Of a stretch of DNA of 64,000 nt, positions 23,207-60,687 are shown one piece after another; positions within the stretch are counted from its first letter, which is position 1; each line of letters begins with the position of its first letter. Source of the DNA: Nanobdellota archaeon (GTDB lineage Archaea > Nanobdellota > Nanobdellia > UBA10117 > ARS21); NCBI GenBank assembly GCA_014240455.1, contig JAAZWY010000001.1:87924-151923 (forward strand), read 5' to 3'. Position numbers and translations under genes: made by a program. Below the pieces are notes generated by a model. The model had not been told where the DNA came from. It worked only from the letters and a program-made list of their open reading frames with translations, and searched no databases.

Positions 23207-23899
23207 CTACTTCTTTGAAGACATGGTTTTTATGCCTTCCGAAGTGGTAACCATAAATTGTAACCTATTTTCTTGGAATTCTTTCCCCAGAACTTTCTTG
23301 AAGACGTTTTTTGCTAAATCTGCTCCTTCTGTGATGGAAAGGTTTGATTTCCATCCTTTTTCTAGAAGTTTGTTTGCTTCCATAGAATTTGAGCCGATAG
23401 CTTTTGCTTTGTATTGGAAGTAAATTCCTGCTGGTTCTGTCATATATAGTCGTGGACCGTCTTCTCCGACGTCTCCGACCAAGAATGATACTCCGAAAGG
23501 TCTGATGCCTCCGTATTGAGTGAAACTTTGACAAATGTCTGAGATGAATTTTACTAATGCTTCACCTGATAATTCTTCCCCATAACTCATTTTGTGTTCT
23601 TGTGCCTTTATTCTTGATTTCTTTAGTAGAACTCTTGCATCACCAATGTATCCTGCCGGGGTCGCGATGATGTTTTTGTTTACTTCTGAAACTTTTGATA
23701 ATGATTCTGGTACAATTAATGGATCGAATCGATGTGTGTCTGCTGCTAGGACTACTCCGTCCTTACATGTGATTCCCATTATTAATGAACCGCTGTCAAT
23801 TGCTTTCTTTGCGTATTCTACTTGTAAAATTCTTCCGTCTGGGCTGAAAACTGTAATAGCTCTATCGTAACCCATTGCTTGATTTGGTATAACTTGCAT
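23207..23899 (-). CDS. psmA: Proteasome subunit alpha
   Basis: GYDRAITVFSPDGRILQVEYA signature. Confidence 0.9.
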   Translation of the reverse strand: MQVIPNQAMGYDRAITVFSPDGRILQVEYAKKAIDSGSLIMGITCKDGVVLAADTHRFDPLIVPESLSKVSEVNKNIIATPAGYIGDARVLLKKSRIKAQEHKMSYGEELSGEALVKFISDICQSFTQYGGIRPFGVSFLVGDVGEDGPRLYMTEPAGIYFQYKAKAIGSNSMEANKLLEKGWKSNLSITEGADLAKNVFKKVLGKEFQENRLQFMVTTSEGIKTMSSKK

Positions 23900-24090
23900 A
23901 AGATTGAAATGGAGTGAATATTTTTAAAGGTTGTTGGTGGTTGCTACTTTCGAGATTTCTTTATAGCTTTTAATTGTTGCATAGTAATAGAATATTTCCA
24001 AAGTTTGTGTTTTGTATAGCCGATGAATTTCTTTATTGCGTTGTACATAGTTCTAAAAAGATCTTTTAGTTTAAAATAATTTGGTAAAAT

Positions 24091-24290
24091 GCGAGTCTGG
24101 TTGAATGCAAGCACTCAACCGTCTTCACGAGTGAACATCAACCGCAAGCGGCTTCAGTTCGGGTGAACCTTCCGAAGAAAGTTCGGGATGAACATCCTTT
24201 GGCCGAAGCCAAATTCAGTTCGGGTTGAATTGTCCGAAAACAATTCGGGTAGAAATTTTCAACCGCAAGCGGCTTCCAATTTCTATTCAC
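24091..24290. repeat. GC-rich block of tandem hairpin-forming repeats (3-4 units agttcggg-N-tgaa...ccgaa) bracketed by 18-nt direct repeat tcaaccgcaagcggcttc (24138-24155 and 24259-24276); candidate ncRNA or DNA-binding array
   Basis: Read directly from sequence; GC about 48 percent versus about 33 percent surroundings; additional hairpins ggttga(n10)tcaacc at 24099-24120 and ttcac-ga-gtgaa at 24124-24135. Confidence 0.5.
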
Positions 24291-24376
24291 CTCTAATAAT
24301 TTGAGTATATAAGCCTTTCGGTGGAGAAAAAATGACTAAAAAGTAGTTTTTTTAAGAGTTCTTAGTAATTCTATTT

Positions 24377-25789
24377 ATGAAGAAAGTATCTAAGTCCGAT
24401 TATGTGCAGAGTTTGAAATGTCTCAACTATGTGTGGCATAAATTCAACGATAAGGAAAAACTACCTTCTCTTGACAGAGTATTCATTGTCCAAAGAGGAG
24501 TTGAGTTTGGAGCGCTCGCTCAGAAATTATATTCTGATGGAATTTCAATTAAATTTAATTACAAACAAGCTTCCAAAGATACAAGTGAATCTTTAGATTT
24601 AGGAAAACCAATTTTTGAAGCAACATTTGAAACTGATAAACTATATTGCATGGTTGATATACTTGTTCCATCTGAAGGCGGCTGGGATATTGTTGAAGTT
24701 AAAAGCGGATCAAGTGTTAAGAAAGAACATTATGATGATGTGGCTTTTCAGAGGTATGTATTGGAAAAATCAGGGATTAAAGTAAATAAATGTTATTTGA
24801 TGCACGCAAATAAAAAATATATTCGAAAAGGAGATATTGATATTAAGAGCCTATTCATGAAGACCGATATTACTGAGAAAGTTGAAGAAGTTATAAACAC
24901 AGTTCCGGGAAATATTGAAAGACTTCTCTCTTATGTTTCAAAAGATATGCCAGACAACAAACATAAATTCTGTTCAAAACCAACGAAATGCGATTTGAGA
25001 CAAATCTGTTGGGATCATTTACCTGAACATAATATTTTAGAATTACACGGACTTTGGTTTAGTAAAGCAGAGCCTTTTATGGATGAAGGTAAATTATCTA
25101 TCCTGGATTTACCTGACACGTTTTTTGAGAAACATAAACATACTATTCAAAAAAATGCTATATCTTCGGGTGAACCTCAAATTGATCATAAAAAGATTAG
25201 AGAGTTTAAAGAAACGCTAACTTATCCACTTTCTCATTTTGATTTTGAAACTTTGGGAACGCCGATTCCTTTACACGACGGTTTGAATCCTTGGGGAAAA
25301 TTTGCATTCCAATACTCAATTCATGTTGATGATGGGAAGAAGATAAAACACTATGAGTTTTTAGCTTCAGATGATAAAGATCCTCAGGAGGCACTAGTTA
25401 AACAGTTAATTAAAGATATGCCTACGACTGGAAGTATTGTTACTTTCAATATGGGTTTTGAGAAAGGTATTCTTCGGGATCTTGGAAAGCGTTTTCCTGC
25501 TTATGCAGATAAGTTGAATGATATGATTAAACGAGTTGTTGATTTACAAACTGTGTTTAAGAAGTTTCATTACCATCATCCTGCTCAGAAAGGGAGTAAT
25601 TCTTTGAAAGATGTACTTCCTGTATTTTCTGATAAGAAACATAGTGAGTTAGAGATTCAAGATGGGACTGATGCTTTTACCGCTTTTTATGATAAATATT
25701 ATTTGGGTAAGGATGTTTCAAGAAAGGCTTTACTTGATTATTGTGCATTAGATACTCTTGCAATGGTTGAGATACTTGAAGGGATTTAG
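24377..25789 (+). CDS. Fusion nuclease: N-terminal Cas4/RecB-like PD-(D/E)XK domain (with Cys cluster) + C-terminal DnaQ-like DEDD 3'-5' exonuclease domain (DUF2779-like architecture)
   Basis: N-terminal Y..SL.C..Y.W, D...EVK and QRY motifs; Cys at C-x5-C-x8-C; C-terminal FDFET ... FNMGFE ... YCALD acidic exonuclease motifs. Confidence 0.6.
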   Translation: MKKVSKSDYVQSLKCLNYVWHKFNDKEKLPSLDRVFIVQRGVEFGALAQKLYSDGISIKFNYKQASKDTSESLDLGKPIFEATFETDKLYCMVDILVPSEGGWDIVEVKSGSSVKKEHYDDVAFQRYVLEKSGIKVNKCYLMHANKKYIRKGDIDIKSLFMKTDITEKVEEVINTVPGNIERLLSYVSKDMPDNKHKFCSKPTKCDLRQICWDHLPEHNILELHGLWFSKAEPFMDEGKLSILDLPDTFFEKHKHTIQKNAISSGEPQIDHKKIREFKETLTYPLSHFDFETLGTPIPLHDGLNPWGKFAFQYSIHVDDGKKIKHYEFLASDDKDPQEALVKQLIKDMPTTGSIVTFNMGFEKGILRDLGKRFPAYADKLNDMIKRVVDLQTVFKKFHYHHPAQKGSNSLKDVLPVFSDKKHSELEIQDGTDAFTAFYDKYYLGKDVSRKALLDYCALDTLAMVEILEGI

Positions 25790-25843
25790 TTAGTTCGTAA
25801 CAATTTTAAAGCCAAAAATTACTATCTTTTATGCATTGTGCAA

Positions 25844-26161
25844 TCACAACTTTCTCAAAATACCACTAACCTTCTCAGCAGAAACAGTAGCCTTCTTACC
25901 TTTAACATCCTTGATCAAAGCCAATGCTGCTTTTGTTTCATTTAACATTTTAGAATTTGTACGTAAAACTCCAGTCTGGATTTTAGTATCATACTTCATA
26001 AATTGTATTCCGGCTTTTGCTACACCTAGCTCACCCAGAAAACGTTTACATCCCGCGACTATTGCAATACCAGCGTCTTTTGAAGAGAGTGTTTGTTTTG
26101 AAGATATTTTAAATTGAACATATCTAGGATTTTCTTTCAAGACAGGTAAAATAGGTTTCAT
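25844..26161 (-). CDS. rnp2: RNase P protein component 2 (Pop5/Rpp14 family)
   Basis: LPVLKENPRYVQFKI ... FLGELGVAKAG ... KIQTGVLR ... GKKA ... VSGILRKL matches archaeal Pop5 pattern. Confidence 0.75.
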   Translation of the reverse strand: MKPILPVLKENPRYVQFKISSKQTLSSKDAGIAIVAGCKRFLGELGVAKAGIQFMKYDTKIQTGVLRTNSKMLNETKAALALIKDVKGKKATVSAEKVSGILRKL

Positions 26162-26392: not shown

Positions 26393-26664
26393 TATCTACG
26401 ACCTCCTCTACTTCCACCTGCTTCGATTTCAGTTTGAGTTAACATAATAATGTCACCAGGTCTAGTTGGACCATAAACTAATCTTCGCATAATTTTACCA
26501 GCATCTCTGCCGTCTAGAATTTTACATCGAACCATGTAAACAGCTTGTTTTCCAGATTGTCTTTCAAGACGTTCAATAACTTCAGCAGGATAAGCAGTTA
26601 ATAGTTTACTGTCTCCTTTTACTTTTTCTTTTGGTGCGTCTTTAACTTTCTGATTTTTTGCCAT
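26392..26664 (-). CDS. rps28e: 30S ribosomal protein S28e
   Basis: AEVIE...G..G.V..V.CKILDGRD.GKI..R.V.GP.R.GDIIML..TE.EA. Confidence 0.85.
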   Translation of the reverse strand: MAKNQKVKDAPKEKVKGDSKLLTAYPAEVIERLERQSGKQAVYMVRCKILDGRDAGKIMRRLVYGPTRPGDIIMLTQTEIEAGGSRGGRR

Positions 26665-27416
26665 TACTCAGTCTTTTCTTCTGAAGTTTCAGCTTCTTTC
26701 TTTTTAGGCTTTTCTTCAACAGGTGCTTCTACTTCCGCTTCTTCAGCTGGTTTTTCTTCAGTAGCTTCCTCTTCTGAAGTTTCAGCTTCTTCCTTTTTAT
26801 CTTCTTTGGATTCTGCTTCTTCTGTCTTTTCTTCAACAGGTGCTTCTACTTCTTCAGCCGGAGTTTCTTCAGCAGGTTCTTCTACAACTTCCTCAGTTTT
26901 TTCTTCTGATTCAGCCGGAGTTTCTTCAACAGCTTTTTCAACCTTTGCAGGTTTTTCAGCTGGTGCTTCTGTCTTTTCTTCAGCAGATTCTTCTACTTTT
27001 TCCTTTGGAGCTTTCTTTTCTGCTGGTTTTTCTTCAGCAGGTTTTTCAGCCTTTACAGGTTCAGCTTCTGCTTTCATTAAAATTTGAATATCTTCTAAAA
27101 GATTGTTTAGTTTCTTTTGAGCTTCACCAGGATTTGCAATTGCTACAGCAGCTGTTGCGACAGGTAATCCTGCAGCTGCGCCTAATTCTGCTTTAGAAGG
27201 CACTTCAACGTGCATAATTTCTTTATCCTTAGCTAAAAGAGCTAAATGTTGAATAATTTCGCCTGGAGATACGTCAGTAGCTACAATAGATAGCTTAGCT
27301 TCACCTCTTTCCAAGGACTTTGTTACTTCGTTTACACCTTTCCGGATTTTTCCGTCAGTACGAGAATCCTCAATAATTGAGTAGATTCTTTCAATAATAT
27401 CTTTTGTTAGTTCCAT
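26664..27416 (-). CDS. rpl7ae: 50S ribosomal protein L7Ae (K-turn binding) with unusual about 130-aa C-terminal Lys/Glu/Ala/Pro-rich low-complexity extension
   Basis: N-terminal 120 aa match L7Ae (GVNEVTK...AKL.I.A.DVSP.EII.HL..LA); tail EEKPAE/EETPAE repeats with DNA-level direct repeats. Confidence 0.8.
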   Translation of the reverse strand: MELTKDIIERIYSIIEDSRTDGKIRKGVNEVTKSLERGEAKLSIVATDVSPGEIIQHLALLAKDKEIMHVEVPSKAELGAAAGLPVATAAVAIANPGEAQKKLNNLLEDIQILMKAEAEPVKAEKPAEEKPAEKKAPKEKVEESAEEKTEAPAEKPAKVEKAVEETPAESEEKTEEVVEEPAEETPAEEVEAPVEEKTEEAESKEDKKEEAETSEEEATEEKPAEEAEVEAPVEEKPKKKEAETSEEKTE

Positions 27417-60612: not shown

Positions 60613-60687
60613 GGTCCGGTAGCGTAGCCTGGTTAGCGCGCACGACTGATAATCGTGAGGTCGCAAGTTCAAATCTTGCCCGGACCA
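60613..60687 (+). tRNA. tRNA-Ile (anticodon GAU), no encoded CCA
   Basis: Hand-folded cloverleaf: acceptor GGTCCGG/CCGGACC, D-stem GCGT/GCGC, anticodon stem CACGA/TCGTG loop CTGATAA, T-arm GCAAG-TTCAAAT-CTTGC, discriminator A. Confidence 0.85.

Follow-up and report, generated by a model that had tools for sequence, protein, structure and literature searches.

The question raised by this locus is what a GC-rich, repeat-laden intergenic block represents where it lies between psmA and a divergently oriented nuclease gene in an AT-rich archaeal genome. The block occupies positions 24091-24290 of a 64-kb stretch of DNA (hereafter the window), and an original prediction had offered three possibilities for it: a small structured RNA gene, a repeated protein-binding array, or the footprint of a small insertion element. 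We consider it very probable that the block contains a structured RNA gene on the minus strand, and on balance we favour, with some reserve, a stand-alone minus-strand gene for a structured non-coding RNA (ncRNA) of ~200 nt that acts as a multivalent platform in a narrow clade of marine Woesearchaeota. The case for a structured RNA gene rests on strand-specific tetraloops, hairpin-preserving replacements, modular insertions and deletions (indels) and a promoter. Comparisons were made with related loci, labelled L001-L026, which together with the window amount to 214 kb of DNA.

The GC-rich block is a real feature. The GC content of 24091-24290 is 48% versus 35% across the window, the 150-nt GC peak of the block (50%) exceeds that of any other part of the 64 kb, and 24086-24285 is the richest in GC of all intergenic stretches. 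The highest 100-nt GC fraction among the intergenic gaps is also that of the block (0.54), compared with 0.52 for the gap containing the only tRNA gene of the window. The repeats described in the original prediction were all recovered: the two leading hairpins, i.e. the inverted repeat ggttga...tcaacc at 24099-24120 and ttcacgagtgaa at 24124-24135, four agttcggg-N-tgaa units, matched by four minus-strand CCCGAAY motifs (chance expectation for paired occurrences, 0.00), and an exact 18-nt direct repeat with copy 1 at 24138-24155 and copy 2 at 24259-24276, for which two matches were obtained in none of 100 shuffles. The best internal repeat of the block shows 72% identity over 32 nt, and the repeat analysis detected no terminal inverted repeats. 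The sole open reading frame (ORF) in the block is a minus-strand GTG frame of 50 aa. This frame is disrupted in relatives by indels of 25, 6 and 2 nt, and the block is non-coding, as had been proposed.

The two strands of the block differ in what they can fold. The minus strand, which has the sense of psmA, gives a predicted fold of -66.8 kcal/mol (z = -3.84, with 1 of 200 shuffles as good), in line with the earlier expectation of a structure beyond chance, compared with -58.3 kcal/mol (z = -1.75) for the plus strand. UUCG and CUUG are two classic families of extra-stable RNA tetraloops, and the loops of all six hairpins predicted on the minus strand are either UUCG or CUUG, the plus-strand reading being CGAA or CAAG. 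Hairpins capped in this way and having a stem of at least 4 bp number 6 in the 200 nt of the block versus 18 in the other ~128 kb (both strands), and clusters of at least three such hairpins are formed only by this element in the 214 kb, always in the minus sense. G·U pairs, as well as exchanges among G·U, G-C and A-U, are compatible with the minus strand only, and matches to a covariance model (CM), scoring 213-277 bits, were found on the minus strand only. The minus strand is best read as the informative strand of the block. An RNA transcribed from the plus strand was considered and rejected on the grounds of its weaker fold, its lack of special loops, and the C·A mismatches that it would have at the sites of minus-strand G·U pairs. 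Long-range pairing of the two 18-nt repeats, which appears in the centroid and, when a longer piece is folded, in the minimum free energy (MFE) structure, was rejected because L003 and L024 replace one of the copies with an unrelated hairpin. No long-range helix is conserved across the variants, and the RNA is predicted to consist of six locally closed hairpins; the alternative ttcgg/ccgaa pairings to which the original prediction gave a central place find no role in this conserved fold, which uses UUCG as tetraloops.

Nine copies of the element were found (in the window and eight related contigs), sharing 85-99% identity and falling into five sequence types. In all of them a putative archaeal promoter is kept, located in the window at 24305-24321 on the minus strand and consisting of a B recognition element (BRE)-like sequence, CCGAAAGG, at 24321-24314, followed by a TATA box, CTTATATAC, at 24313-24305; the version in L003 and L024 is TCGAAAGGCTTTTAAAC. 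Counting 20 nt from the end of CTTATATAC leads to the first base of M1, the first hairpin of the RNA, and the same spacing separates the TATA box from the ATG of psmA, of a neighbouring 34-aa ORF and of the nuclease gene. The TATATA sequence at 24305-24313 had previously been taken as the TATA box of the nuclease gene; it fits an RNA promoter better, and the nuclease gene has a T-rich TATA box of its own, probably at ~24346-24355, ~20 nt before its ATG. Among the copies the sequence varies just upstream of 24285 and is invariant from 24285 onward. Because of this switch and the BRE/TATA spacing, the predicted RNA is placed on the minus strand from ~24285 to 24086, with its 5' end probably at ~24285-24283 and its 3' end probably in the U-run at 24089-24086, which is a run of U4 to U6 in all copies. 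The element therefore appears to possess what is generically expected of an archaeal small RNA (sRNA) gene, namely a BRE/TATA near position -27 and a stretch of oligo-U as the signal for termination.

From the 5' end, the predicted RNA begins with hairpin M1 (24250-24285; UAGAAAUU-GGA-AGCCG-CUUG-CGGUU-GAA-AAUUUCUA), in which 8 bp form the lower stem and 5 bp the top; between them lies a 3x3 loop of purines (G·A, G·A and A·G), and the cap is a CUUG tetraloop. M1 contains copy 2 of the direct repeat, is present in every predicted MFE structure, and is invariant in all nine copies. A CCC linker (24247-24249) separates it from hairpin S1 (24227-24246; GAAUUGUU-UUCG-GACAAUUC), which has an 8-bp stem and a UUCG loop, and the linker AACCC (24222-24226) precedes hairpin M2 (24190-24221; GAAC-UGAA-UUUGGC-UUCG-GCCAAA-GGAU-GUUC), the internal loop of which is made up of U·U, G·A and A·G. 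Next come the linker AUCCC (24185-24189) and hairpin S2 (24165-24184; GAACUUUC-UUCG-GAAGGUUC), with an 8-bp stem and a C(UUCG)G loop, and then the linker ACCC (24161-24164) and hairpin M3 (24133-24160; GAAC-UGA-AGCCG-CUUG-CGGUU-GAU-GUUC), which contains copy 1 of the direct repeat. An ACUC linker leads from M3 to the 3' terminal hairpin (24091-24128; GUGA-AGAC-GGUUGAGUG-CUUG-CAUUCAACC-AGAC-UCGC), which is followed by the tail AUUUU (24090-24086). The 18-nt repeat, regarded earlier as the boundary of the block, thus corresponds to the identical tops of M1 and M3 within the RNA, and its copy number ranges from one (L003 and L024) to three (L002) among strains.

Two kinds of element are repeated and conserved along this chain: single-stranded (A/U)CCC linkers followed by GAAC, and tandem sheared G·A internal loops (3x3, UGA/GAU or GGA/GAA), which occur in the three hairpins M1, M2 and M3. 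Near the 3' end, an alternative hairpin, UUCA-CUCG-UGAA (24124-24135), competes with the base of the terminal hairpin and with the lower stem of M3; a U-A pair of this alternative hairpin covaries to C-G in L003, and its loop is UUCG in L020 and L022. In the folding models these mutually exclusive 3' helices (the lower stem of M3, the UUCA/UGAA hairpin and the base of the terminal stem) could form a switch.

The differences among the copies are largely those of whole modules. The reference type comprises the window, L001 and L021 (98-99% identity to the window). In L002 (87%), the M2 top UUUGGC-UUCG-GCCAAA is replaced by GCCG-CUUG-CGGC, a copy of the M3 top, so that the hairpin is kept and M2 and M3 of this copy are the same. 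In L003, which is identical to L024 (~90%), M3 has been rebuilt as GAG-C-CGUC-UUCG-GACG-A-CUC, again a hairpin, here without the G·A loop. A 25-nt unit comprising S1 and linker residues is deleted in L014 (~85%) and also in L020 and L022 (~85%), the last two forming a type of their own with a UUCG loop on the small alternative hairpin. In L002 and L003, the terminal hairpin has UUCG in place of its CUUG loop and carries an insertion of 2 nt. Single substitutions in the stems are exchanges among G·U, G-C and A-U, such as U·G to U-A in S2 of L001, G·U to G-C in M3 of most relatives, and several in the terminal hairpin that preserve its pairs, while in M2 of L001 the loop-adjacent A·G becomes A-U. 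When each of the five sequence types was folded independently, the MFE structure had the same beads-on-a-string architecture. In a structure-aware alignment, 98.3% of the pair cells are standard pairs, compared with 24-53% in slid controls, and four double-sided pair changes were counted, a number reached by none of 500 shuffles. Of the three possibilities originally put forward, it is the small structured RNA gene that these data favour, given the strand-specific tetraloops and G·U pairs, the BRE/TATA and U-tract of its own, and the hairpin-preserving replacements.

Several observations weigh against this interpretation. The sample is small, with nine copies and five sequence types at 85-99% identity. 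All four double-sided changes derive from one replacement, that in L002, in an alignment fitted to the structure, and no double-sided changes are seen in a plain MAFFT alignment; on these alignments, therefore, formal covariation is thin, and the covariation that the original prediction proposed to look for was found as a single event with the structure-aware alignment and disappeared with the plain one. The flanking intergenic DNA is 87-99% conserved, about as much as the RNA, so that conservation alone is no proof of selection on the RNA. Since the close relative L023, in which the nuclease is 86% identical, has no RNA at this site, the RNA is dispensable or relocated there. Finally, the G·A loops do not have the 3-nt bulge of a true kink-turn (k-turn).

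The element is narrowly distributed. Searches with blastn, nhmmer and the CM over 27 sources gave no homologs beyond the same nine copies, and no extra copies were detected in the 64 kb or in the 214 kb of related DNA with nhmmer and the CM; the multi-copy occurrence in relatives that had been suggested as a check thus yielded nine copies, one per locus. A pattern scan of metagenomes returned three contigs, all representing the same locus, while two scans of viral contigs gave chance pattern matches only. As far as these sequences go, the RNA is confined to one narrow clade of marine Woesearchaeota (DPANN). The relatives of psmA assign the source of the window to an uncultivated marine lineage of Woesearchaeota/Nanoarchaeota.

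How such an RNA would work can be described only tentatively. We envisage that it is transcribed from its own BRE/TATA, that transcription stops at the U-tract after the terminal hairpin, and that the transcript adopts a beads-on-a-string structure of six hairpins carrying UUCG or CUUG tetraloops. The resulting platform would bind, scaffold or titrate several copies of one protein, which would contact the G·A loops and C-rich linkers spaced by the rigid tetraloop hairpins, a logic comparable to that of the CsrB/RsmZ-type decoy RNAs without implying homology. A multivalent protein-binding scaffold or decoy is possible rather than probable as the specific mechanism; it is preferred over a ribozyme, a riboswitch or a single-seed antisense RNA because the hairpins are independent, the repeated motifs lie outside the loops, the modules are homogenised within a molecule (M2 is identical to M3 in L002, as is the M1 top to the M3 top in the window), and the number of modules differs between strains. 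Candidates for the partner are speculative and include an L7Ae-family protein, one of which is encoded 2.4 kb from the RNA, a KH or poly(C)-type protein binding the CCC linkers, the neighbouring nuclease, and the 34-aa basic peptide.

The comparison with Rfam proposed in the original prediction placed the element in no family at either the gathering or a permissive threshold. A gathering-threshold scan of the window against Rfam 15 detected only a tRNA-Ile (60613-60687), and with a permissive cutoff (E up to 10) applied to 23850-24450 there were seven hits, all to unrelated families, with E-values of 1.4-8.9 and scores of 10.6-19.5 bits, versus gathering thresholds of 39-86. Several classes of RNA were considered individually and rejected. 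RNase P RNA, brought to mind by the adjacency of Pop5, is not supported by a conserved long-range helix or by a model match at E up to 10, the Pop5 adjacency is itself unconserved, and CR-I and CR-V, which form the P4 pseudoknot of that RNA, appear to be absent, as judged by eye against the consensus. Archaeal signal recognition particle RNA was dismissed because the loops are all UUCG or CUUG with no GNAR, the length is ~200 nt versus ~300, and there is no model match. An H/ACA sRNA does not accord with internal loops of just 3x3 or 4x4 and with CCC, not ANA, after the hairpins, and a box C/D sRNA does not accord with the two CUGA sequences, neither of which is preceded at 12 nt by RUGAUGA, or with spacers that are at least 38 nt long and contain hairpins. 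A k-turn was rejected because the 3x3 loop is symmetric and no register that keeps the apical stem provides a 3-nt bulge, and a hammerhead-like reading of CUGA...GAUG was rejected on motif geometry.

Certain known systems nevertheless resemble the element in part. As in the box C/D k-turn, CUGA in M2 and M3 lies opposite (U/G)GAUG, which gives a non-canonical stem of G·A, A·G, U·U and G-C; unlike box C/D k-turns and k-loops, the block has no 3-nt bulge, no terminal C/D pair, no 12-nt guide spacing and no Rfam C/D match. The Hgc RNAs, which Klein, Misulovin and Eddy are said to have found in 2002, are reportedly GC-rich orphan ncRNA genes recognized by composition in AT-rich archaea. The block is like them in being a GC-rich intergenic island in an AT-rich archaeon, with a promoter of its own and a stable fold, that was spotted by base composition, but it matches neither the sequence nor the structure of HgcC, HgcE, HgcF or HgcG, being a linear array of tetraloop hairpins in one sub-clade of Woesearchaeota. 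With the bacterial CsrB/RsmZ RNAs it shares, by analogy only, numerous local hairpins, a short motif presented repeatedly, a module count that differs between relatives and the lack of a global tertiary fold; those RNAs present GGA in loops and bind CsrA/RsmE, whereas the block has CCC linkers and G·A internal loops and is not homologous to them. We know of no CsrA-like partner in archaea. By sequence, then, the element looks like an orphan family, a lineage-specific archaeal small RNA visible as a GC island in an AT-rich genome. Literature searches on ncRNAs of DPANN archaea and Woesearchaeota returned no relevant description.

If this reading is correct, the element would represent a promoter-equipped family of structured RNA without an Rfam counterpart. 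DPANN archaea are uncultivated and have reduced genomes, and to our knowledge almost no regulatory RNAs have been described from them. The modular build, in which repeated G·A loops and CCC linkers are displayed by spacers capped with tetraloops, is unusually clean and makes the RNA an easy target for metatranscriptome mapping and in-vitro binding tests. Its significance is limited by the very narrow distribution and by its presence or absence among close strains.

The alternatives depend on the neighbouring genes. On the minus strand, L7Ae, S28e, L24e and Pop5 occur in this order; the nuclease gene follows on the plus strand, and beyond it lie the block, the 34-aa ORF, psmA, SBDS, Rrp4 and Rrp41. 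The nuclease gene (24377-25789, plus strand) encodes 470 aa with DUF2779, Cas4-like and RNase-H-like matches (Pfam PF11074, PF01930 and PF13482). The 34-aa ORF (23944-24048, minus strand; MYNAIKKFIGYTKHKLWKYSITMQQLKAIKKSRK), located between the RNA and psmA, is basic and lysine-rich and has a TATA box of its own ~20 nt before the ATG. Gene calling reports it as a 34-residue gene in both L014 and L024, relatives share 90-97% identity over the intergenic block, L023 has a homolog in which some amino acids are changed, and neither Pfam nor PHROGs gave a match; the ORF is likely to encode a real small protein. The region between the block and the psmA promoter, previously regarded as an empty spacer, is therefore occupied by a conserved ORF.

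The alternative that survives best, although unlikely, is that the block acts in cis as a 5' leader or regulatory element of the minus-strand genes that follow it, namely the 34-aa ORF and the psmA-SBDS-Rrp4-Rrp41 operon, with the 3' helices serving as a terminator/antiterminator-type switch. It would accord with the fact that, in the six copies for which the downstream flank is available (window, L001, L003/L024, L014, L020 and L022), the 34-aa ORF and psmA come immediately after the block and share its strand, with the weak stop that the U4 tract would provide, and with the fit of both competing helices to the L003 substitutions. However, in L002 a distance of 2.7 kb separates the RNA from psmA, the gene that follows the RNA is a convergent one for an aldo/keto reductase, and the 34-aa ORF is displaced by 1.4 kb; the 34-aa ORF and psmA each have their own TATA box ~20 nt before the ATG; both are present in L023 without the RNA; and psmA comes straight after Pop5 in more distant relatives. 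Because of the arrangement in L002 and the separate promoters, a psmA leader is rejected, in agreement with the original prediction, which had not taken the block for a psmA untranslated region.

At the DNA level, the linkers GTTCGGGTGAAC, GTTCGGGATGAAC, GTTCGGGTTGAAT and ATTCGGGTAGAAA are four similar inverted repeats located between divergent promoters, and could be seen as palindromic operators (GTTC-N4/5-GAAC) for a dimeric regulator acting on the nuclease and psmA-side promoters. This is improbable, since the palindromes, spaced 24, 37 and 25 bp apart, lack helical phasing and operators account neither for the one-strand UUCG/CUUG hairpins in every segment between the palindromes, nor for the pairing-preserving top swaps and tolerated G·U pairs, nor for a dedicated BRE/TATA directed into the block. 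Of the protein-binding array proposed earlier, the palindromes thus stand, while the strand-specific RNA signals are left unexplained by it. Equally doubtful in our view is a trans-acting base-pairing sRNA using the (A/U)CCCGAA linkers as seeds for G-rich targets, in the manner of the UCCC motif of RsaE/RoxS-type sRNAs. The four conserved single-stranded C-rich motifs between stable hairpins are what such an sRNA would present, but GGGT, CGGG and TCGG are absent at -18 to -3 of all 61 gene starts of the window, the window has no other occurrence of GTTCGGG, no significant complementarity was found to its remaining sequence, and most first genes look leaderless.

A further possibility, to which we give scant credence, is that the RNA is the partner of the DUF2779/Cas4-like nuclease, as a type III antitoxin-like inhibitor, a regulator, a guide or a substrate mimic. 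The nuclease gene is the divergent neighbour of the RNA in all eight copies with a visible flank (window, L002, L003, L014, L020, L021, L022 and L024, the nuclease-side flank of L001 being beyond the contig end), including L002, in which the other side has wholly changed, and the build from repeat units recalls the ToxI-type antitoxins. Against this, fetched homologs of the nuclease with 49-86% identity (L015-L019, L023, L025 and L026) lack such an RNA both upstream of the gene and in the remainder of the locus, and PADLOC gave only generic Cas4 matches for the nuclease. Repeats of the ToxI type are near-identical, precede the toxin gene in the same orientation, and are cut by the endoRNase toxin. 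Like the type III antitoxins ToxI and CptI, the block would be a small repeat-built RNA beside a nuclease gene; unlike them, it is divergent, not upstream and co-directional, its units are heterogeneous (20-38 nt) and not near-identical, its neighbour is PD-(D/E)XK/RNase-H-like, and the linkage is broken in close relatives. The only complementarity to the nuclease mRNA is a perfect match of 13 nt between the S2 3' arm, the ACCC linker and the start of M3 and the SSGEP codons of the coding sequence (25165-25177, plus strand), which was rejected as an antisense target and attributed to chance because the synonymous positions differ in RNA-bearing relatives. That RNA and nuclease form a new accessory or defence-like DPANN module, carried by the strain-variable island that split Pop5 from psmA, is likewise a long shot. 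The weakest alternative, a miniature inverted-repeat transposable element (MITE) or repetitive extragenic palindromic (REP)-like non-autonomous mobile element bounded by the 18-nt direct repeat, i.e. the insertion footprint of the original prediction, shares with REPs, bacterial interspersed mosaic elements and MITEs the clustered GC-rich palindromes and the intergenic position in a variable island, and would accord with the interruption of Pop5-psmA and the presence or absence among close relatives, yet is very improbable, the block being single-copy in the 64 kb and in each related locus (214 kb, searched with nhmmer and the CM and including no complete genome), represented in metagenomes by three contigs of the same locus and in viral scans by chance matches only, flanked by the same nuclease at every visible flank, equipped with a dedicated promoter and strand-specific RNA features, and devoid of terminal inverted or target-site repeats, with the 18-nt repeat internal and in 1 to 3 copies depending on the strain.

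The surroundings of the RNA gene have a history of their own. In L005-L013, nine loci from more distant relatives, psmA is preceded by Pop5, mostly within ~20-140 nt, and because of this direct linkage the nuclease gene, the block and the small ORF are read from sequence comparison as an insertion island that splits Pop5 from psmA, as the original prediction had recognized; the locus would thus display a strain-variable island breaking an ancient Pop5-psmA linkage in one lineage. The adjacency of Pop5 also varies among the closer loci, with no Pop5 match in those of L002 and L003 and two genes between the nuclease and Pop5 in L014. The island (24377-26161 in the window; also compared in L002, L014 and L023) varies from strain to strain; besides the nuclease gene, the RNA and the 34-aa ORF, it contains unannotatable ORFs (98-179 aa) that differ between strains, as well as an aldo/keto reductase gene. 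Searches of its small ORFs against Pfam and PHROGs gave nothing informative except the aldo/keto reductase, and no mobile or viral sign. Beyond the immediate clade, the closest named relatives of the nuclease (~40% identity) are mostly bacterial, from Chloroflexota, Actinomycetota and Dehalogenimonas, and there are hints that the gene was acquired horizontally; literature searches returned no described function for DUF2779. The L7Ae homolog (26664-27416, minus strand) has 250 aa, of which only residues 10-101 match the Pfam L7Ae domain, the rest being a long acidic tail rich in Glu, Lys, Pro and Ala that is unusual for archaeal L7Ae.

Two further observations concern the window as a whole and the mosaic nature of the locus. 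Of 61 gene starts of long ORFs, 41 have a run of A/T between -38 and -18 relative to the ATG, the TATA boxes of the four genes around the block end ~20 nt before the ATG, and GGAG is the only Shine-Dalgarno-like word enriched upstream of gene starts (10 of 61); the gene starts suggest that transcripts in the window are mostly leaderless. In L021, the RNA and the RNA-nuclease spacer share 99% identity with the window while the nuclease gene shares only 78% (nucleotide level), and in L022 the RNA-psmA spacer shares 96.8% and psmA only 80%. Comparison of these two loci with 23207-25789 of the window suggests recombination breakpoints at gene borders.

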